Part shown: positions 26,627-35,438 of the stretch, one piece after another
How positions within the stretch are numbered: position 1 is the first letter of the stretch
How the letters are laid out: the number at the start of each line of letters is the position of its first letter
NCBI GenBank assembly: GCA_040755995.1
Contig: JBFMAF010000008.1
Location: 202,549 to 266,548, forward strand
Direction: 5' to 3'
Length of the DNA stretch: 64,000 nt
Origin: Acidobacteriota bacterium
GTDB taxonomy: Bacteria; Acidobacteriota; CAIWXX01
Notes under the pieces: model-generated
What the model was told of the DNA's origin: nothing
The model's database searches: none
Seen by the model: the letters and a program-made list of their open reading frames with translations, nothing else
Translations under genes and position numbers: made by a program

Positions 26627-26712
26627 GCCGCCCCTACGGGGCTCGCATCCGTCCGTCATCGTTCCAGGGGCTTGCGCCCCTGGCTACCTTCCGCCGCCCC
26701 TACGGGGCTCGC
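26627..26712. repeat. Composite REP-like element: two identical 20-bp hairpin repeats flanking a central hairpin
   Basis: GCCGCCCCTACGGGGCTCGC at 26627-26646 and 26693-26712; CCAGGGGC-TTGC-GCCCCTGG at 26664-26683. Confidence 0.75.
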
Positions 26713-26883
26713 GCGGAATGCGCGTACTCCGACTCCCCGCATGCGTGTGCGCACGCACGCGTCCACGCACGCGTCCGGTTTCTTGACAGCGCACAGACGC
26801 TATGCGAGTATTCAGTCTTTGTTTGAGGAGCGGTGACGGATCGTCACGCTCGGCATAGGAACCCATCGCAGGAGGGAATCGGA

Positions 26884-27930
26884 ATGGTCGGAATCGTAGG
26901 ATACGGCGCCTACATCCCGCGTAACAGGATCAAGGTGGAGGAAATCGCCAAGATCTGGGGGGCTGATGCCCCAAGCTACAAGCGCGGGCTGGGGCTCGAA
27001 GAGAAATCTGTGCCATCACCGGATCAGGACACCATCACGATGTCGGTGGAGGCTTCCAAGTACGCGCTCAAGAGGGCAAGGATCAATCCCCTTGACATCG
27101 GTGCTGTGTATGTCGGATCGGAGTCGCACCCATATGCGGTGAAGCCGTCGGGCACCGTGCTGGCCGAGGCCATCGGTGCGACCCCCGAGGTGCACACGGC
27201 GAGCTTCGAGTTCGCGTGCAAGGCCGGCACGGAGGCCATGTTTGTGTGCATCGGCCTGGTCGAGTCGGGGCGGATCAAGTACGGCCTGGCGGTCGGCGCG
27301 GACACCTCCCAGGGCGCTCCGGGCGACGCCCTCGAATACTCGACGGCGGCCGGCGCGGCTGCGTTCATCTTCGGCAGAGACAACGTGCTGGCCGAGATCA
27401 ACGAGACATACGCGTTCATGACCGACACGCCCGACTTCTGGCGCAGAGAATACGAGCACTACCCGCGCCACGCGGGGCGTTTCACGGGCGAGCCGGCCTA
27501 CTTCAAGCACGTCCTCGGTGCGGCCACCGGGATCATGAAGAAGAGCGGCATGACGCCCAAGGACTTCGACTACGTGATCTTCCACCAGCCGAACGGCAAG
27601 TTCCCGCTGAACGCAGCCAAGCAGCTGGGATTCCAGAAGGAGCAGGTCGAGACCGGGCGCCTGGTGCCCAAACTGGGCAACACCTACTCCGGGTCCTCCC
27701 CCATCGGACTGACCGCGGTTCTGGACGTCGCCAGGCCCGGGAACAAGATCCTGCTGGTTTCGTACGGATCGGGAGCCGGCAGCGACGGGTTCATCTTCAC
27801 AGTGACGGACAGGATTCTCGGTGTGCAGAACCTGGCTGTGAAAACCCGCGAGATGCTCGACAACAACAAGGTGTACATCGACTACGGTACGTACGCCAAG
27901 TACCGCGGGAAGATCCGCAAGGCGGAGTGA
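26884..27930 (+). CDS. Hydroxymethylglutaryl-CoA synthase, archaeal type
   Basis: [26 protein letters not shown], catalytic Cys in [24 protein letters not shown] and YAKYRGKI; ~348 aa as in archaeal enzymes. Confidence 0.93.
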
Positions 27931-27947
27931 AGGACGGAGGAACAGGA

Positions 27948-29108
27948 ATGAGAGACGTAGCGGTAATCGGTGTAGGCCTTAACAAGAAATGGGGCGAGCT
28001 CTGGGAGATGCCCCTGCGGGATATCCTAGCCGAGGCGGCTCTGGCTGCAATCGACGATGCAGGCGTAGATCACATCGACTCGATGTACGTCGGCTGCATG
28101 TCCGGCGGGCTGTTCGTCGGGCAGGAGCACCTTGGCGCGATGATGGCCGACTACATCGGCATGACTCCCGTTCCGGCCACGCGCGTCGAATCGGCGTGCT
28201 GTTCGGGCGGCACGGCAGTGCGGCAGGGCTACCTGGATGTGGCATCGGGTGCGAGCGACATAGTGCTGGCGGCCGGTGTCGAGAAAATGACCGACGTGAG
28301 CGGCGACGAAGCCACATACGCGCTCTCGACAGCCTCCGACATGGAGTACGAGGCATACCAGGGCATAACGTTCCCCGGGCTGTACGCGCTGATCGCGCGC
28401 GCGCACATGCATCAGTTCGGGACTACGCGCGAGCAGCTCGCGCACGTAGCGGTGAAGAATCACAGGCACGCCGCGAAGAATCCAGTGGCGCAGTATCCAT
28501 TCGAGATCACAGTCCAGGGAGTCCTCGAGTCGACGCTCGTTGCCGACCCTTTGCACATCCTGGACTGCTCGCCCATAACTGACGGGGCCGCGGCCATCGT
28601 GCTGTGTTCGCTCGACATGGCCCGCAAGATCTGCAAGAAACCGCTGGTCAAGATCATCGGGTCAGGGCAGGCCACGAGCACCATCGCGCTGCACTCGCGC
28701 TCCGACATGACCTGGTTCGAGTCCACAGCGAAGGCGGCGGAGAAGGCGTTCAAGATGGCAGGCAAGGGGCCTCGAGACATCCATGTCGCGGAGGTCCACG
28801 ACTGCTTCACAATCGCCGAGATAGTCATCCTTGAGGCTCTGGGCTTCACCGAACGCGGCAAGGGTGGGACGGCGGCCGAAAGCGGCATGACCGCACTCGG
28901 CGGCAGGATCCCGGTGAACACGAGCGGCGGCTTGAAGGGCAAGGGCCACCCGGTCGGAGCCACCGGCGTAGCGCAGGTCGTCGAAATCACCCGGCAGCTC
29001 CGCGGCGAGTCCGGCGAGCGTCAGGTGAAGGGGGCGCGGGTCGGCCTGACCCAGAACATGGGCGGGACCGGCGCCAGCACGGTGGTCCACATTTTGGAAG
29101 CTCAGTGA
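27948..29108 (+). CDS. Acetyl-CoA acetyltransferase (archaeal/SCP2-type thiolase)
   Basis: [38 protein letters not shown] and QNMGG; GGAGG RBS before ATG 27948. Confidence 0.92.
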
Positions 29109-29141
29109 ACTCCGGATACCTGGCCCAGAGGAGGATATAGC

Positions 29142-29534
29142 ATGGCAAATCCGGCAAAATACTGGAGAGAAATACCACAGCGATTTCGTCTGGAAGCGGC
29201 GAAGTGTGCCTCGTGCGGCAAGATCTTCTTCCCCCCGAGACTCATATGCGACAAGTGCAAGTCGCGCCAGTTCGAGAAGGTCACGCTCAAAGACGAGGGC
29301 AAGGTCCTGACCTACACGATCATCCGAGTCGGGTCGAGCCAGTTCGCTGACCAGACCCCGTATGCCGTCGGGGTCATCGAGCTCGACGACGGCGTGAGGA
29401 TCACGAGCCAGATCGTAGACTGCGATTTCGAGAAACTGACAATCGGGCAGCGCGTGAGAATAGAGTTCCGCAAGATCCAGAAGGTGGGAGCCGCCGGCAT
29501 ACTCTGCTACGGCTACAAGTGCGTGCCCGCCTGA
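29142..29534 (+). CDS. DUF35 Zn-ribbon/OB-fold protein (thiolase-HMGCS scaffold family)
   Basis: CASCG..FFPPR..CDKC, GKVLTYTII and YGYK. Confidence 0.92.
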   Translation: MANPAKYWREIPQRFRLEAAKCASCGKIFFPPRLICDKCKSRQFEKVTLKDEGKVLTYTIIRVGSSQFADQTPYAVGVIELDDGVRITSQIVDCDFEKLTIGQRVRIEFRKIQKVGAAGILCYGYKCVPA

Positions 29535-29618
29535 TCGGGGAGCGCGCGCCAGAACACAGCTAATCGACATAGTCGGCTCCGACGGAGCCGGCACAATCCC
29601 GGCGAGACGCAGCTACTC

Positions 29619-31226
29619 ATGTATCGAATTGAATCGAAGATCGACACGAAGTCGCTCGAGTATCAGCAGAATTCGGAAGCGCTGAAGAATCAGGTCGCCG
29701 ACCTGAGGCAGAGGCTCGAGCAGGTACGCAAGGGAGGATCACGCAGCGCCGTCGAGAAGCACAAGGCGAGGGGTAAGCTGACGGCGCGCGAGCGCATCGA
29801 GCTGCTCTTCGACAAGGCGACGCCTTTTCTGGAGTTCAGCCCCCTGGCCGCCTACGGGCTTCACAAGAATGAAGTCCCGTCGGCCGGTGTCGTCACCGGA
29901 GTGGGTGTGGTCTGCGGAAAGGAAGTGCTGGTCGTCGCCAACGACGCAACGGTCAAGGGCGGGACCTACCTCCCCGAGACGATCAAGAAACACGTCCGCG
30001 CGCAGGAGATCGCTCTCGAGAACAGGCTGACTTGCGTCTACCTCGTGGATTCCGGCGGGATCTTCCTCCCCCTGCAGGTGGGCACCTTCCCGGACAAGGA
30101 ACACTTCGGACGCATCTTCTACAATCAGGCGCGGATGTCCGCATTGGGCATTCCGCAGATCTCGGTCGTGCTTGGCTCATGCACGGCGGGCGGCGCGTAC
30201 GTCCCTGCGATGAGCGACGAGACGATCATCGTCAGGCAGCAGGGCACGATCTTCATCGGCGGGCCGCCGCTCGTGAAGGCTGCCACCGGTGTGGATGTGT
30301 CGCCGGAGGAGCTCGGCGGCGCCGATGTCCATTGCCGCATCTCGGGAGTCTCCGATCATTACGCCCTCAACGACCGGCACGCAATCGAGATCACGCGGAA
30401 CATCGTTGAGAACCTGCCGGCACCCGCCAAGCATCCGCTCGATATCACCGAGCCCGAAGAGCCGTACTACGACCCGCAGGAGCTGTACGGGATCATCCCC
30501 CGCGACCTGCGCAGGCCGTTCGACATGCGCGAGGTCATCGCTCGAATCGTCGACGGCAGCAGATTCCATGAGTTCAAGGAGCTCTACGGACTGACGTTGG
30601 TGACCGGATTCGCGCGAATAATGGGACACCCGGTCGGCATCGTGGCCAACAACGGCGTGCTCTTCTCCGAAAGCTCGCTCAAGGGGGCTCATTTCGTCTC
30701 GATGTGCGCCGTTCGCAAGATCCCGCTCGTCTTCTTGCAGAACATCACCGGCTTCATCGTTGGAAAGCAATACGAGCACGGCGGCATCGCTCGCGACGGC
30801 GCCAAGATGGTTCACGCCGTCGCAAACGCCCAGGTTCCGCGATTCACGCTTATCATCGGCGGCTCCTATGGCGCGGGCAACTACGCCATGTGCGGCCGCG
30901 GCTACCTGCCGCGACTCCTCTGGATGTGGCCCAACGCCAAGATCTGCGTGATGGGCGGCGAACAGGCGGCCAGCGTCCTGTTGCAGGTGAAATTGGAAAA
31001 CCTCAAAGCAAAGGGCGAGACGATGAGCGAGGAGGACCAGGAGGCGTTCAAGGCTCCGACTCTGGCCAAGTACGAGGAGGAGGCCAGCGCCTACTTCAGC
31101 ACCGCACGACTCTGGGACGACGGCATCCTCGACCCGGTCGAGACGCGCAACGCGCTCGCACTCGGCATCTCCATGTCGCTCAACGCCCCGATCCCTAACC
31201 ACAACTTCGGCGTCTTCAGGATGTAG
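29619..31226 (+). CDS. liuB: 3-methylcrotonyl-CoA carboxylase beta (carboxyltransferase) subunit
   Basis: [48 protein letters not shown] and C-terminal FGVFRM. Confidence 0.9.
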
Positions 31227-31438
31227 ATGCTGCCGTGCAGCGCAACCTCAGCGTGCGTGACAATCCGGACTGCCGTTCGACCGGCCTCCGACGCGAGGAC
31301 ACGGAGACGCTGTGACGCGCAGACGCGGTGACCGGCCCGGTGAGCTCTTCGCGTCCCCACGCCTTCGCGCCCCGGCCTCATCGAGAAGCGCGTTGCAGGC
31401 GGGCCCGGGGCTAGACGCCGACCTGTCACCATGAGAAC

Positions 31439-32287
31439 ATGAATCACTACGAGACCATAGCCATTCACGTCGAGGGGGCGGTTGCGCGTGTGACGCTCAA
31501 CAGGCCCGATGTCCGCAATGCGTTCAACGACCGGATGCTGGAGGAGCTTCTTGAGGCATTCCAGCGCATTCACATGGCCGAGACCGTGAGGGTGGTCGTG
31601 CTCACCGGGGCCGGGAGCTGCTTCTGCGCCGGGGCTGACCTCAACTGGCTGCGCCGCGTCAAGGAATTCACCTACGGGCAGAACCTCAGGGAATCTCGAG
31701 TACTGGCGGATTGCCTGTACGCCATGTACTCGTGCCCGAAGCCGACAGTGGCGCGCGTGAACGGCCCGGCAATCGGCGGCGGCACCGGACTCGTCGCCGT
31801 GTGCGATATCGCCATCGCATCCAGCGACGCGCAGTTCAGTTTCAGCGAGGTCAAGATCGGAGTCGTGCCGGCGTGCATCTCGCCGTACGTCGTGCGGAAA
31901 ATGGGCGAGGGCAAGTGCCGCGAGCTCTTCCTCACCGGCGAGCGGATCGGCGCCGAACGCGCGCTGCAGGCGGGCCTGCTCAACCAGGTGACGCCGCCCG
32001 AATCGCTTGACCAGGCGGTAACGAGCAGGGTCGACCAGCTCCTCTCGAGCGGACCGCATGCGCTGAAAATGTGCAAAGAGCTCCTCGAGAAGGTCCCTTC
32101 GATGGATCTGCACACGGCAGGCCCGTACACGGCAGAGATGGTCGCAAGGCTGAGAATGAGCGCCGAGGGCCAGGAGGGCATGGATGCGTTTCTGCAGAAG
32201 CGCAAGCCCTCGTGGATCGTGGACGCGGAGACAGGGAGACAAGCAGAAACGGGGAAACGAGGAAACGGTGACACGGAGACGCGGTGA
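31439..32287 (+). CDS. liuC: Methylglutaconyl-CoA hydratase-like crotonase
   Basis: LNRPDVRNAF, FCAGADL, GGGTGL, FSEVKIGVVPACISPYV and EGMDAFLQKR; sits between MCC subunit genes. Confidence 0.85.
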   Translation: MNHYETIAIHVEGAVARVTLNRPDVRNAFNDRMLEELLEAFQRIHMAETVRVVVLTGAGSCFCAGADLNWLRRVKEFTYGQNLRESRVLADCLYAMYSCPKPTVARVNGPAIGGGTGLVAVCDIAIASSDAQFSFSEVKIGVVPACISPYVVRKMGEGKCRELFLTGERIGAERALQAGLLNQVTPPESLDQAVTSRVDQLLSSGPHALKMCKELLEKVPSMDLHTAGPYTAEMVARLRMSAEGQEGMDAFLQKRKPSWIVDAETGRQAETGKRGNGDTETR

Positions 32288-32341
32288 CGCGGTGACACGG
32301 AGAAACGGCCACACGAAGAAACTCGGACACGGAGACACGGG
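32222..32341 (+). repeat. Degenerate 8-bp tandem array (GACACGGA/GACGCGGT), ~15 units, spanning the liuC stop
   Basis: Read directly. The same octamer family occurs at 6339-6370 (reverse) and 31290-31332. Confidence 0.85.
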
Positions 32342-32382
32342 GTCCAGAGGTCGAATGGTCGCCCCCTAGCGACTGCCCCACC

Positions 32383-33885
32383 ATGTTGAAGAAGATCCTC
32401 GTAGCGAACCGCGGCGAGATCGCGTTGCGCGTTATCCGTGCGTGCCGCGAGATGGGAATTCCAACCGTGGCGGTCTACTCATCGGTCGATCGCGCTGCGA
32501 GGCACGTGCAGGCGGCGGACGAGGCTGTCTTCATCGGCCCGCCGGCGCCGCTGGAAAGCTACCTGAACATCGAGCGGATCGTTCAGGCGGCGCTCCAGAT
32601 GCGTGCGGATGCGATCCACCCCGGCTACGGCTTCCTCGCCGAGAATCCGCGCTTCGCACTCAGGTGCGAGGAGGCTGGGCTGGTGTTCGTCGGTCCGAGC
32701 TCGAAGGCGCTGGCGCTGGTCGGCGACAAGGTCGAATCGCGCAAGACCGCCTCTACCATCCGGGTTCCGCTCATTCCCGGGATGATGGCACCGGGCAAGT
32801 CGCTGGAGGAGTTCCAGGCGGCCGCGGCGGAGATCGGATACCCGGTCCTGGTGAAGGCCTCCGGCGGCGGCGGCGGCAAGGGGATGCACGTAGTAAGGTC
32901 GTCTGCGGAGCTGAAGTCGTCGATCGAGATGAGCCGCCGCGAAGCGAAGTCGGCCTTCGGTGACGACGCCGTATACATCGAGAAGTACCTGGAGAGGCCG
33001 CGGCATGTGGAGTTCCAGGTGCTGGCGGACCGTCACGGCCACACCATACATCTGTGCGAGCGCGAGTGCTCGATTCAGCGCCGCCATCAAAAGATAGTCG
33101 AGGAAACGCCCTCTGTCGCGCTTGATCCGGGTCTCCGGCGCCGCATGGGTGAAACGGCCGTCGCTATCATCCGCGCCACGGGGTACACGAACGCCGGCAC
33201 CGTCGAGTTTCTCCTCGACCGTGAGCGACGATTCTACTTCCTCGAAGTGAACGCGCGCATCCAGGTGGAGCACCCGATCACGGAGATGGTGGTCGGCGTG
33301 GACCTCGTGAAGCAGCAGATTCGGATCGCCGCCGGCGAGCCGCTGACCATTCACCAGGAGGACATCCAGCAGCGCGGCCACGCCATCGAGTGCCGCATCT
33401 ACGCCGAAGACCCTGAGAGAGGCTTTCTTCCAAGCCCCGGCAGAATCCTCCTGGCGCGCGAGCCGGAAGGACCGGGAATACGCTGCGACTCGGGGATCTA
33501 CTCCGGCATCGAGGTGACTCCTCACTACGACCCGATCCTGTCGAAGCTCATAACGTGGGGTGAGGACCGGGATTCCGCGCGCCAGCGCATGATATCCGCG
33601 CTCGATCGCTACGTCATTCTGGGCATTCCGACTGGTATCGAGTTCCTCAAGGACGTTATCAGGCATCCTGCCTACGCATCGGGCGATACGCACACGCACT
33701 TCGTGGACGAACACTTTGGCGACTGGAGGCCTGTGGCGCCGGAGGAGGAAGCGATGAAGGCGGCGCTGGTGGCGGCGGCGTTGACCGAGCTCGGCCCTGC
33801 CAGAGCATCAGGACCCGCTCAGCAATTGCGCCGCCCCACTCCCTGGCAGACCATCGGCAAGTGGGCGATCGGCGGAACGAGATGA
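32383..33885 (+). CDS. Biotin carboxylase subunit (MCC alpha-like, lacking the biotinyl domain)
   Basis: ANRGEIA, IHPGYGFLAEN, GGGGKGM, ERECSIQRRHQK, EVNARIQVEH and RIYAEDP. Confidence 0.93.
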   Translation: MLKKILVANRGEIALRVIRACREMGIPTVAVYSSVDRAARHVQAADEAVFIGPPAPLESYLNIERIVQAALQMRADAIHPGYGFLAENPRFALRCEEAGLVFVGPSSKALALVGDKVESRKTASTIRVPLIPGMMAPGKSLEEFQAAAAEIGYPVLVKASGGGGGKGMHVVRSSAELKSSIEMSRREAKSAFGDDAVYIEKYLERPRHVEFQVLADRHGHTIHLCERECSIQRRHQKIVEETPSVALDPGLRRRMGETAVAIIRATGYTNAGTVEFLLDRERRFYFLEVNARIQVEHPITEMVVGVDLVKQQIRIAAGEPLTIHQEDIQQRGHAIECRIYAEDPERGFLPSPGRILLAREPEGPGIRCDSGIYSGIEVTPHYDPILSKLITWGEDRDSARQRMISALDRYVILGIPTGIEFLKDVIRHPAYASGDTHTHFVDEHFGDWRPVAPEEEAMKAALVAAALTELGPARASGPAQQLRRPTPWQTIGKWAIGGTR

Positions 33886-33992
33886 GGAGCAGGCTGTGCG
33901 TGCGACGGGCAGAGATGCGTTCACGCTCACGTCGAAGTCTACGTTCACGAATGACCGTGCCGCCGCATCATGGCGGCACCCCGTGAGGCGAG

Positions 33993-34496
33993 ATGGAACA
34001 TGAGTTTGTAGTGGGCGGGCAGAGCCATCGGGTCTCGGTGGAACACCGGGATGGGAAGGATCACATAGCGGTCGACGGCGAGCCGTTCGATGTGGATCTG
34101 CGGCAGGTCGATTCACACACCGTCTCACTTCTTCTGGGGAGCCGCTCTTTCGTCGTCCACATTTCGAGGGATGCTAGCCGGACACTGGCGGTTGTGGGGG
34201 GGCACCGGTTCTGCCTGGAGGAGCCCGCCGCTGAGAGTGCGCGCGCCGCCGCGGGCGCGGGAAGCGCCGACGGGGAGATAAAGGCGCCGATGCCGGGGCT
34301 AGTGACGAAGGTACACGTGGCGCAGGGGGCCGTAGTGAAAGCCGGGGAGAGCCTTGTGGTCGTCGAAGCCATGAAGATGGAAAACGAGATGCGGGCGCCG
34401 TTCAGGGGCGTGGTCGCGAAGGTACACGTGCAGGCCGGCCAACAGGTCGACGCGTTCCAGGCGCTGGTCGAGGTGGAGCCCGCCGAAGGCGACTGA
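33993..34496 (+). CDS. Biotin carboxyl carrier protein
   Basis: APMPG and the biotinylation motif VEAMKMENE. Confidence 0.93.
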   Translation: MEHEFVVGGQSHRVSVEHRDGKDHIAVDGEPFDVDLRQVDSHTVSLLLGSRSFVVHISRDASRTLAVVGGHRFCLEEPAAESARAAAGAGSADGEIKAPMPGLVTKVHVAQGAVVKAGESLVVVEAMKMENEMRAPFRGVVAKVHVQAGQQVDAFQALVEVEPAEGD

Positions 34497-34581: not shown

Positions 34582-34611
34582 TTGACGCCCCACTGCGGGT
34601 TCCGCTATAGT
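34582..34611 (+). promoter_or_regulatory. Sigma70-like promoter for the DUF62-PBP genes
   Basis: TTGACG-18 bp-TATAGT, ending 12 nt before ATG 34623. Confidence 0.55.
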
Positions 34612-34622
34612 CCATCTTCGAC

Positions 34623-35438
34623 ATGGCAGCTCAAGCACGGCCCTTCATTGTCGCGCTACTCAGCGACTTCGGCACAGACGATCCCTACGTCGGCTGCATG
34701 AAGGCTGCGATCCTGGGCGTGAACCCGTCGGTTCCGATCATCGACATCACGCACAGCGTGCAGGCGCACAGCATCGTCGCAGCCGCCTACACGCTCGCCG
34801 CCACGTATCGCAGCTTTCCCGAGAAGACGGTATTCGTGTGCGTCGTGGACCCCGGGGTGGGATCGGAGTGCCCGGTTCTGATTGCCTCGGCTGGGCGCCG
34901 CTATTTCGTTGCACCCGACAACGGGCTGCTTTCACCTGTCTTTGAGGACCCGGATCTCGGCCGCGTGTTCCGGGCCACGGCATCGCATTTCTTCTCCGCA
35001 TCCGTCGCACAGACGTTCCACGGCAGGGACATGATGGCGCCGCTCGCGGGGTGGATTTCGAAGGGTGTGGACATCGAGAACATGGGCGAGCCGTACGCGC
35101 TCTACAAGCGCGTCGAGCTGCCCATGCCCAAACTGGTGGCGGGGGGCATTCTCGAGGGGCAGATCTGGCACATCGATCGCTTCGGTAATTGCATCACCAA
35201 CATTACGCGTGAGGCTTTCGATCAAGCCGCTGGGACGGACAAGAAGTTCGTCAAGGCAGTCGCGGGCAAGCACGAGATCAAGACTCTCTGCAACTATTAC
35301 GCGCAGGCCCCGGTCCGCGGCGGACCCGTTTGCCTCTTCGGCAGCCTGGGTTACGTGGAGCTAGCCTGCAACCGGGCCTCCGCCAGTGAATTCCTCACCG
35401 CCAACGTCGGCTCGATTGTCGGGATCGTCTTCGATTGA
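34623..35438 (+). CDS. SAM hydroxide adenosyltransferase/chlorinase family (DUF62)
   Basis: SDFG..DPYVG, VVDPGVG, APDNG, TFHGRD and HIDRFGN. Confidence 0.92.
   Translation: MAAQARPFIVALLSDFGTDDPYVGCMKAAILGVNPSVPIIDITHSVQAHSIVAAAYTLAATYRSFPEKTVFVCVVDPGVGSECPVLIASAGRRYFVAPDNGLLSPVFEDPDLGRVFRATASHFFSASVAQTFHGRDMMAPLAGWISKGVDIENMGEPYALYKRVELPMPKLVAGGILEGQIWHIDRFGNCITNITREAFDQAAGTDKKFVKAVAGKHEIKTLCNYYAQAPVRGGPVCLFGSLGYVELACNRASASEFLTANVGSIVGIVFD

Follow-up and report, generated by a model that had tools for sequence, protein, structure and literature searches.

We describe seven co-oriented genes in a 64,000-nt stretch of the genome of an Acidobacteriota bacterium (contig JBFMAF010000008.1, positions 202,549 to 266,548; hereafter the window). 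In this gene run an archaeal-type triad of 3-hydroxy-3-methylglutaryl coenzyme A (HMG-CoA) synthase, acetoacetyl-CoA thiolase and a DUF35 protein stands in front of the genes for a methylcrotonyl-CoA carboxylase (MCC) and a LiuC-like hydratase. The linkage is conserved in other genomes, HMG-CoA reductase (HMGR) is absent from the entire genome of this organism, and beside the same carboxylase core the triad and HMG-CoA lyase exclude each other. From this pattern we infer, with a probability of roughly one half, that the triad takes over from the lyase, converting HMG-CoA to three acetyl-CoA as the last stage of leucine or isovalerate breakdown. A sequence-only reading of the window had offered two other roles, namely supply of HMG-CoA to a mevalonate pathway encoded elsewhere and a route resembling the AIB pathway of myxobacteria. 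Replacement of the lyase by the triad is a third reading, and the comparative data favour it.

An archaeal-type triad in front of a leucine-type carboxylase core

The genes listed by the sequence-only reading, in the order HMG-CoA synthase (HMGCS), thiolase, DUF35, liuB, liuC, biotin carboxylase (BC) and biotin carboxyl carrier protein (BCCP), were all found on the plus strand between 26884 and 34496 (Table 1), separated by spacers of 17, 33, 84, 212, 95 and 107 nt. A consensus scan detected a terminator-like hairpin upstream of the HMGCS gene and no terminator-like site between DUF35 and liuB. The best promoter-like site of the region lies after the operon, where it precedes a gene of the S-adenosylmethionine (SAM) hydrolase/SAM hydroxide adenosyltransferase family, the downstream neighbour. 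Judged from this layout, a single transcript for the seven genes is plausible; a look-up of sequencing runs returned none for the operon. The GC content over the operon (62-64%) equals that of its surroundings, and no compositional anomaly was seen.

Table 1 Features of the window, followed by stretches of the same and other genomes mentioned in the text
Feature	Coordinates	Strand	Length (aa)	Match or remark
Archaeal-type HMG-CoA synthase	26884-27930	+	348	TIGR00748 equivalog, 559.6 bits (cut-off 353.35)
Probable archaeal-type acetoacetyl-CoA thiolase	27948-29108	+	386	NF004720, 544.9 bits (cut-off 420)
DUF35 protein, zinc ribbon and OB fold	29142-29534	+	130	PF12172, 43.5 bits; PF01796, 75.1 bits
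MCC beta (carboxyltransferase), liuB	29619-31226	+	535	PF01039, 513.7 bits
LiuC-like enoyl-CoA hydratase, predicted 3-methylglutaconyl-CoA hydratase	31439-32287	+	282	PF00378, 205 bits
Biotin carboxylase subunit (MCC alpha minus carrier domain)	32383-33885	+	500	PF00289, PF02786, PF02785
Biotin carboxyl carrier protein	33993-34496	+	167	PF00364, 65.8 bits
Acido-Lenti-1 RNA motif	26664-26709	+		RF01687, 46.6 bits (gathering score 37)
Terminator-like hairpin	26757-26774			Consensus scan
Promoter-like site	34582-34611			Best of region
SAM hydrolase/SAM hydroxide adenosyltransferase family gene	34623-35438	+		
HMGL-family lyase, CaiB-type family III CoA-transferase, LeuC/LeuD-like subunits in a row	L012 9195-13374 (G000:C21:62194-66373)			Own genome
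Second thiolase and DUF35 pair	G000:C35:284367-285905			Own genome
Variant operon with different carboxyltransferase	L100 4043-10561			
Distant triad	L111 7939-10583			
Distant triad	L112 8147-10722			
Distant triad	L113 9541-12150			
Weak HMGR-family match	G004:C126:1848-2720		463 (ORF)	54.6 bits
Weak HMGR-family match	G013:C411:392-1273		425 (ORF)	48.8 bits

Besides its equivalog match, the synthase, which is single-copy in its genome, scored 553.4 bits against NF003274 (cut-off 244) and aligned over residues 2-345 with Protein Data Bank chain 6esq_I (483 bits), the segment FHQPNGKF and one further 15-residue segment being identical. The thiolase aligned with 6esq_A from query residue 8 onward (377 bits) and reached 541.1 bits with the equivalog NF053570, under its cut-off of 600. 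Its start is most likely the ATG at 27948, which has GGAGG ahead of it; an in-frame GTG occurs at 27927. Four cysteines of the CxxC...CxxC type (CASC...CDKC) mark the zinc ribbon of the DUF35 protein. The active-site segments of the triad are identical to those of the Methanothermococcus complex enzymes (6ESQ), and we take the identical synthase and thiolase segments to be those bearing the catalytic Glu, Cys and His. A second thiolase and DUF35 pair, 41% and 35% identical to the window's and with no synthase adjacent, is encoded on contig C35.

As in the archaeal thiolase/HMGCS/DUF35 complex, the three proteins are encoded side by side, and a corresponding complex is predicted here from sequence likeness alone. 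The archaeal complex, however, feeds HMGR and the mevalonate pathway, whereas the genome of the window has no reductase, the genes lie in a leucine-type operon, and the direction proposed below is the reverse. The same three-protein HMGS/ACAT/DUF35-like architecture is found in bacteria in the PhlABC and MucABC acylases. According to the 2026 MucABC paper, these enzymes are without the residues for HMG-CoA formation and catalyse Friedel-Crafts acetylation, and bacterial triads are treated there as acylases that lost HMG-CoA synthesis (PMC12960953). In contrast, the proteins of the window, which scored 234 bits with PhlA and 134-137 bits with PhlC, are far closer to the archaeal enzymes and have intact active-site segments.

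The carboxyltransferase matched solved MCC beta chains from Legionella (743 bits, 9TPS), human (MCCB, 727 bits) and P. aeruginosa (720 bits), compared with 461 bits for geranyl-CoA carboxylase beta and ~285 bits for propionyl-CoA carboxylase beta. It is the product of the sole MCC-beta-type gene in the genome, the runner-up match being 34% identical. The top solved match of the BC subunit was P. aeruginosa MCC alpha (3u9s_A, 522 bits, residues 2-489), and the separately encoded BCCP holds the biotin motif EAMKME, so that MCC alpha is present as two genes. The LiuC-like crotonase was matched by NF005675 (262 bits) and NF004227 (260 bits), both under cut-off.

Neither a lyase, a reductase nor an isovaleryl-CoA dehydrogenase had been noticed in the window, and this was borne out: tblastn detected no acyl-CoA dehydrogenase and no HMGL-like lyase in the window at E ≤ 1e-5, and PF00368 had no match in a genome-wide search for HMGR. 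Queries for thiolase II, 3-hydroxyacyl-CoA dehydrogenase (3HCDH), methylmalonyl-CoA mutase (MCM) and AtuA also gave no match in the window at the same threshold. The genome's sole gene of the HMG-CoA lyase family (HMGL; LiuE in the Liu nomenclature) lies on a separate contig among other kinds of neighbour.

An Acido-Lenti-1 RNA motif occupies part of the 308 nt that separate the operon from the dipeptidase gene, and a near-repeat of its core, CCGCCCCTACGGGGCTCGC, occurs ~65 nt further upstream. We rejected the motif as an operon-specific leader: the rest of the genome contains at least 8 further copies that exceed the gathering score and none was found upstream in six related loci, and for these reasons it looks like a dispersed element.

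The triad and the lyase exclude each other beside the same core

In two loci of the same phylum (L106 and L108) the gene order is liuB, liuC, BC (500 aa), a separate BCCP (157-163 aa) and HMG-CoA lyase; in a third (L107), read by tblastn, it is liuB, liuC, BC and lyase. The window holds the same four-gene core, liuB-liuC-BC-BCCP, in the order of L106 and L108 and with the same split of MCC alpha. Unlike these clusters and the LiuABCDE cluster of Pseudomonas, it has no lyase at the 3′ end and carries the triad at the 5′ end; liuA is absent from the window. Proteins of the lyase-type clusters are 61-64% (MCC beta), 43-47% (hydratase) and 51-54% (BC) identical to those of the window, and the position of the hydratase gene between liuB and BC is kept both in these clusters and in loci related to the window. 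Triad-linked MCC beta proteins are 70-84% identical to the window's, compared with 54-68% for other MCC-beta-type proteins, except for that of G084 (72%), which has no triad. A tblastn hint that the BCCP of the window might stem from a BCCP-lyase fusion was discarded, as the long open reading frames (ORFs) contained HMGL only by Pfam and the BCCP lay in another frame.

To this comparison we added a cross-tabulation of five markers in 301 genomes (completeness ≥90%) from the window's phylum. The synthase class was set at ≥64% identity (54 genomes, the window's own among them; nine at 51-54% and a single partial hit, in G336, were set aside), the MCC beta class at ≥54% identity (100 genomes; 19 at 46-50% set aside) and the lyase class at ≥300 bits (66 genomes; matches of 205-290 bits, the sole kind in 47 genomes, formed a lower class that was set aside). 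The reductase class comprised 54 genomes, and a synthase match of any class occurred in 64 of the 301.

The high-scoring lyase was found in none of the 24 genomes that carry both MCC beta and the triad and in 50 of the 76 with MCC beta and no triad; a reductase was present in 3 and 20 of them, respectively. PF01144, the family of the acetoacetate-activating ScoAB/AtoDA CoA-transferases, was present in 2 of the 24 carboxylase-triad genomes, one being the window's own, and in 43 of the 50 genomes defined by MCC beta and the lyase. These counts include G073, flagged as unpublished, which has MCC beta, lyase and CoA-transferase; without it they become 49/75 and 42/49. The distance between MCC beta and HMGCS was at most 12 kb in 22 of the 24 genomes, and that between MCC beta and the lyase was as short in 39 of the 50. 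Taking all 54 triad carriers together, 2 have the high-scoring lyase, 6 a reductase and 4 PF01144, and 47 have neither reductase nor high-scoring lyase, while 48 of the 54 reductase carriers are without this synthase. The lower HMGL class did not track the carboxylase, 34 of the 47 genomes with this class alone having no MCC beta. No HMGL match at E ≤ 1e-60 was obtained in 18 of the 24 carboxylase-triad genomes.

The nine genomes set aside at 51-54% synthase identity contain a distant class of triad (examples in Table 1), with a thiolase 47-48% identical over its main part and no liu genes nearby; a reductase was found in 0/9 and a lyase in 1/9 of them.

Conservation of the linkage was also assessed across phyla. 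A scan of one genome per species yielded at least 586 synthase relatives among at least 600 matched stretches, and the best 80 loci (66-86% identity) were used; their labels were Acidobacteriota, Aminicenantes, Zixibacteria, Eisenbacteria, Ignavibacteria, Glassbacteria, Coatesbacteria, Elusimicrobiota, Planctomycetota, Calditrichota and others. Fifty-three of the 80 were assessable, having the DUF35 gene plus at least 2 kb beyond. An MCC-beta-type gene (≥55% identity) lay no more than 3.5 kb downstream, in the same orientation, in 31 of these loci, 29 of them with liuC and BC as well, and elsewhere in the locus in 3; liuC accompanied a different carboxylase in 5 loci, and none of these arrangements was seen in 14. 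Triad and liu-type genes are thus linked in 39 of the 53 assessable loci, in at least 8 differently labelled phylum-level groups. Synteny in relatives in this way sustains the connection drawn by the sequence-only reading.

That the operon is a chance juxtaposition of two unrelated gene sets might be argued from the 84-nt gap between DUF35 and liuB and the 212-nt gap between liuB and liuC. It is contradicted by the synteny counts across phyla, by the 22 of 24 phylum-sample genomes with close linkage, and by the missing terminator-like site between DUF35 and liuB, nor does the genome carry mevalonate genes elsewhere; we regard it as extremely improbable.

The BC proteins are 51-72% identical across loci, and the full ATP-dependent carboxylase is retained. 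An acyl-CoA dehydrogenase gene was found in or beside the operon in 9 of the 80 loci, in one case (L086) within the gene run. The flanks contained MCM in 5 loci (with the B12 subunit adjacent in 2 and MeaB in 1), thiolase II in 3 and 3HCDH in 4, the last two being paired in 3, and biotin/lipoate ligase-family genes in 6 loci plus L049. No eighth operon gene was conserved across the loci, and no enoyl-CoA reductase or etf gene recurred in the flanks. We also considered the linked acyl-CoA dehydrogenases as isovaleryl-CoA dehydrogenases (IVD); no NCBIfam model discriminated between the types and solved Bcd/SCAD chains outranked IVD chains, and this naming was not adopted.

A variant operon, represented by L100 and also seen in L069, L086 and L092, combines the triad with liuC, BC and a carboxyltransferase 31-35% identical to MCC beta. 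In L075 liuC is adjacent to the triad, and the genes for BC and the carboxyltransferase, which point the other way, are ~4.5 kb distant.

For 50 of the 80 loci, selected with a preference for longer flanks, the source genome was searched for HMGR and HMGL. HMGR gave a strong match in 11, of which 5 have the full operon, and a weak match in 4 more; HMGL at E ≤ 1e-40 was found in 4, all above cut-off and only 1 exceeding 300 bits. Triad-only genomes with HMGR had no MCC beta orthologue, and six triad-only genomes without HMGR had MCC beta (60-75%) elsewhere. Because the reductase is rare and split from MCC beta among triad genomes, mevalonate synthesis seems to be the task of the triad in only a minority of bacteria, and in most its role would be tied to the carboxylase. 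The weak HMGR-family matches in two full-operon genomes (G004 and G013; Table 1) could be divergent reductase-like proteins.

Direction of flow through the seven-gene line

The genome of the window (G000; 7.7 Mb, 99.84% complete) did not sustain the first role put forward by the sequence-only reading, the provision of HMG-CoA for a mevalonate pathway encoded elsewhere. In addition to the missing HMGR, the best mevalonate kinase score was 48.9 bits, under the cut-off of 163, Dxr (472 bits) and IspH (264 bits) are present, and a reductase accompanies the triad in only 6 of the 54 carriers of the phylum. A full-length DXS was not found in this genome (best TIGR00204 match 163 bits against a cut-off of 466). 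The TIGR00204 matches resemble split transketolase or E1-beta-type genes, and the DXS gene may have been lost in a gap of the assembly, or another route may supply DXP.

A broader version of this idea is that the triad and the carboxylase-hydratase pair both run forward and deliver HMG-CoA or 3-methylglutaconyl-CoA to a sink elsewhere, either an unrecognised reductase and mevalonate pathway or a caprazamycin-like product. Both halves of the operon would then work in their textbook directions, and HMGR does occur in 11 of the 50 triad genomes searched across phyla, 5 of them with the full operon. A precedent for one pool fed by HMG-CoA synthase and the Liu pathway is described in PMC9636800, where the HMG-CoA synthase Cpz5 and the host Liu pathway, which meet at 3-methylglutaconyl-CoA/HMG-CoA, supply the 3-methylglutaryl of caprazamycin. 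However, the caprazamycin genes form a specialised antibiotic cluster that includes additional tailoring genes and a bacterial-type synthase, and no operon is shared with the carboxylase. Convergent supply is very unlikely in view of the absence of HMGR from this genome and from 48 of the 54 triad genomes of the phylum, the presence of Dxr and IspH, the lack of a conserved eighth operon gene, and the absence of MCC beta from triad-only genomes with HMGR.

If the triad does replace the lyase, isovaleryl-CoA would be converted to 3-methylcrotonyl-CoA by an acyl-CoA dehydrogenase encoded elsewhere (the best matches in this genome are on contigs C49, C32 and C20), the carboxylase would use ATP to form 3-methylglutaconyl-CoA, and LiuC would hydrate the latter to HMG-CoA. 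HMGCS acting in reverse would then split HMG-CoA into acetoacetyl-CoA and an acetyl-enzyme, from which the acetyl group would pass to CoA, and the thiolase, kept adjacent by DUF35, would thiolyse acetoacetyl-CoA. Acetoacetate would not be released as such, so that neither a CoA-transferase nor a ligase would be needed, with a saving of ~1 ATP equivalent per leucine.

In most carriers LiuC and the triad are the only known producers or consumers of HMG-CoA; the seven genes therefore form one line between acetyl-CoA and 3-methylcrotonyl-CoA, which may run in either direction. The thiolase and synthase steps are taken to sum to near equilibrium, which would make reversal of the channelled pair thermodynamically possible. 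Taken singly, the thiolase step is described as unfavourable and the synthase step as favourable in PMC12960953. The breakdown direction is favoured because the core is a breakdown core and the triad excludes both the lyase and the acetoacetate-activating transferase, and also because the neighbours are of the breakdown type and the full ATP-dependent carboxylase is kept, MCC being held irreversible (PMC9146172).

The main rival is the other role named by the sequence-only reading, an AIB-like synthesis with a biotin-dependent decarboxylation. The triad would make HMG-CoA from acetyl-CoA, LiuC would dehydrate it, and the carboxylase would run backwards, decarboxylating 3-methylglutaconyl-CoA and forming ATP. 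Reduction of the product, 3-methylcrotonyl-CoA, would then give isovaleryl-CoA as a precursor of iso-branched lipids. We hold this to be possible, on the doubtful side. It lets the triad work in its known direction, and the missing lyase, HMGR and CoA-transferase fit synthesis as well as breakdown. The operon-linked dehydrogenases are nearest to Bcd-type enzymes (5ol2_C, 4l1f_A), which work reductively with Etf in clostridia, and iso-C15 lipids are abundant in Acidobacteriota, Ignavibacteria, Bacteroidota and myxobacteria. Reversal of LiuC is documented in myxobacteria and human mitochondria (PMC5389471, PMC9146172), and the former paper also describes AIB of Myxococcus xanthus, in which HMG-CoA synthase and LiuC are connected without serving mevalonate synthesis, as they would be in the window.

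AIB itself differs in its use of a bacterial-type MvaS, a CoA-transferase-like decarboxylase (AibA/AibB) and the reductase AibC, whereas in the window the triad is archaeal-type and the ATP-dependent carboxylase is complete. Beside the only PF01144 pair of the genome, which scores as ScoA/ScoB, neither an AibAB/AibC-like set nor a reductase or TetR gene was found (AibC itself was not searched for), and PF01144 is absent from 22 of the 24 carboxylase-triad genomes. The flanks have no recurrent enoyl-CoA reductase or etf, and their MCM, thiolase II and 3HCDH genes are of the breakdown type. Synthesis would further require the biotin carboxylase to form ATP in the face of the phosphorylation potential of the cell, for which no in vivo precedent is known, and MCC is stated to be irreversible in PMC9146172. 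The AIB-like proposal is thus kept as a rival, with the ATP-forming reversal and the missing AibAB/AibC-like genes counting against it.

Lyase replacement reverses HMG-CoA synthase and the AIB-like route reverses the carboxylase, so each calls on one "irreversible" enzyme. A combination of the two, which we consider rather improbable, would make the seven proteins an ATP-coupled shunt that interconverts three acetyl-CoA and 3-methylcrotonyl-CoA plus CO2 and is freely reversible. When amino acids are available, leucine would be degraded and the synthase would run backwards; with leucine scarce, the carboxylase would make ATP by decarboxylation and the shunt would provide isovaleryl-CoA, from which Acidobacteriota and their neighbours could prime their iso-branched membrane lipids.

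Several points weigh against replacement of the lyase by the triad. HMG-CoA synthase is regarded as physiologically irreversible, and in reverse it would need to form a Cys-thioester from a free carboxylate. A swap of lyase for triad would be equally expected if the direction of the operon had flipped to synthesis. No acyl-CoA dehydrogenase (LiuA) is encoded in the window, and those linked to the operon in other loci are Bcd/SCAD-type rather than IVD-type by solved-structure ranking and can also work reductively. The liuB-liuC spacer of 212 nt makes a single transcript plausible rather than certain. The genomes sampled in the phylum are related, and the counts represent a pattern, not independent trials. 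MCC beta at ≥54% is absent from 30 of the 54 triad genomes, 15 of which have a 46-50% carboxyltransferase. The lower HMGL class may act as lyase in some lineages, since it is the only HMGL class in 7 of the 26 carboxylase genomes that have neither the triad nor the high-scoring lyase. Finally, the window's own genome has an HMGL-family gene on contig C21 above the NF004283 cut-off (268.5 bits against 246) and a ScoA/ScoB 3-oxoacid CoA-transferase, also above cut-offs and the only PF01144 pair; the conventional lyase route could therefore operate in this organism.

Under such a conventional ending, restricted to this genome, the C21 lyase would cleave HMG-CoA, ScoAB would activate acetoacetate, and the triad would be employed elsewhere, for example for forward synthesis in a ketogenesis-like cycle. 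The scores of the three proteins fit it, as does a family relative (G060) that has MCC beta, no triad and only the lower-scoring HMGL class. We nevertheless judge it unlikely. The C21 gene is flanked by a phosphopantetheinyl transferase gene on one side and by genes for a CaiB-type CoA-transferase and then LeuCD-like dehydratase subunits on the other, not by liu genes, and its product is only 34-35% identical to the liu-cluster lyases of the phylum. Most genomes with only the lower HMGL class have no MCC beta (34/47), most carboxylase-triad genomes have no HMGL match at E ≤ 1e-60 (18/24), and the conserved triad-carboxylase linkage would be left unexplained. We take the C21 gene row (L012 in Table 1) to resemble a citramalyl-CoA-type or related C5-dicarboxylate route rather than leucine breakdown.

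Spread among bacteria and consequences

A quick, unrooted HMGCS tree was built from 83 of the 84 gathered sequences (the window, the 80 loci and 3 of the 51-54% class). The synthase of the window grouped with Acidobacteriota-labelled rows (support 98 in this tree), the phyla were interleaved, and the reductase-linked rows formed no separate deep clade. Rooting with the 51-54% class was tried and abandoned, as its rows were long-branched and fell inside the tree; no root or donor was deduced from it. In a homologue search for a two-domain tree, the 120 matches listed were all at least 77% identical, and every source-named one was bacterial. The synthase is present in 0/2 other genomes of the window's own family. 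Transfer among bacteria fits this patchy spread (64/301 genomes of the phylum, 0/2 of the family) and the interleaved phyla, and lateral spread of the operon among bacteria is likely. In this form, as transfer among bacteria, the lateral origin suggested by the sequence-only reading stands.

A literature search, with supplements outside its reach, found no published description of the seven-gene operon. For annotation, finding an archaeal-type HMG-CoA synthase in these bacteria should not be read as a sign of a mevalonate pathway, a reductase being present in only 6 of 54 carriers of the phylum sample. The completeness of the present genome (99.84%) makes it a better test case than a fragmentary assembly. 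If the synthetic rival were true, the operon would be a new source of iso-branched lipid primers. If instead it is the triad that cleaves HMG-CoA, the operon would provide the first natural example of a reversed HMG-CoA synthase, and lyase and reductase would be joined by a third mode of HMG-CoA disposal. All three thioesters of the leucine skeleton would be kept and the energy yield of amino-acid breakdown would change, a saving that would matter most in the widespread, mostly uncultured Aminicenantes, Zixibacteria, Ignavibacteria, Eisenbacteria and Acidobacteriota of sediment and soil.

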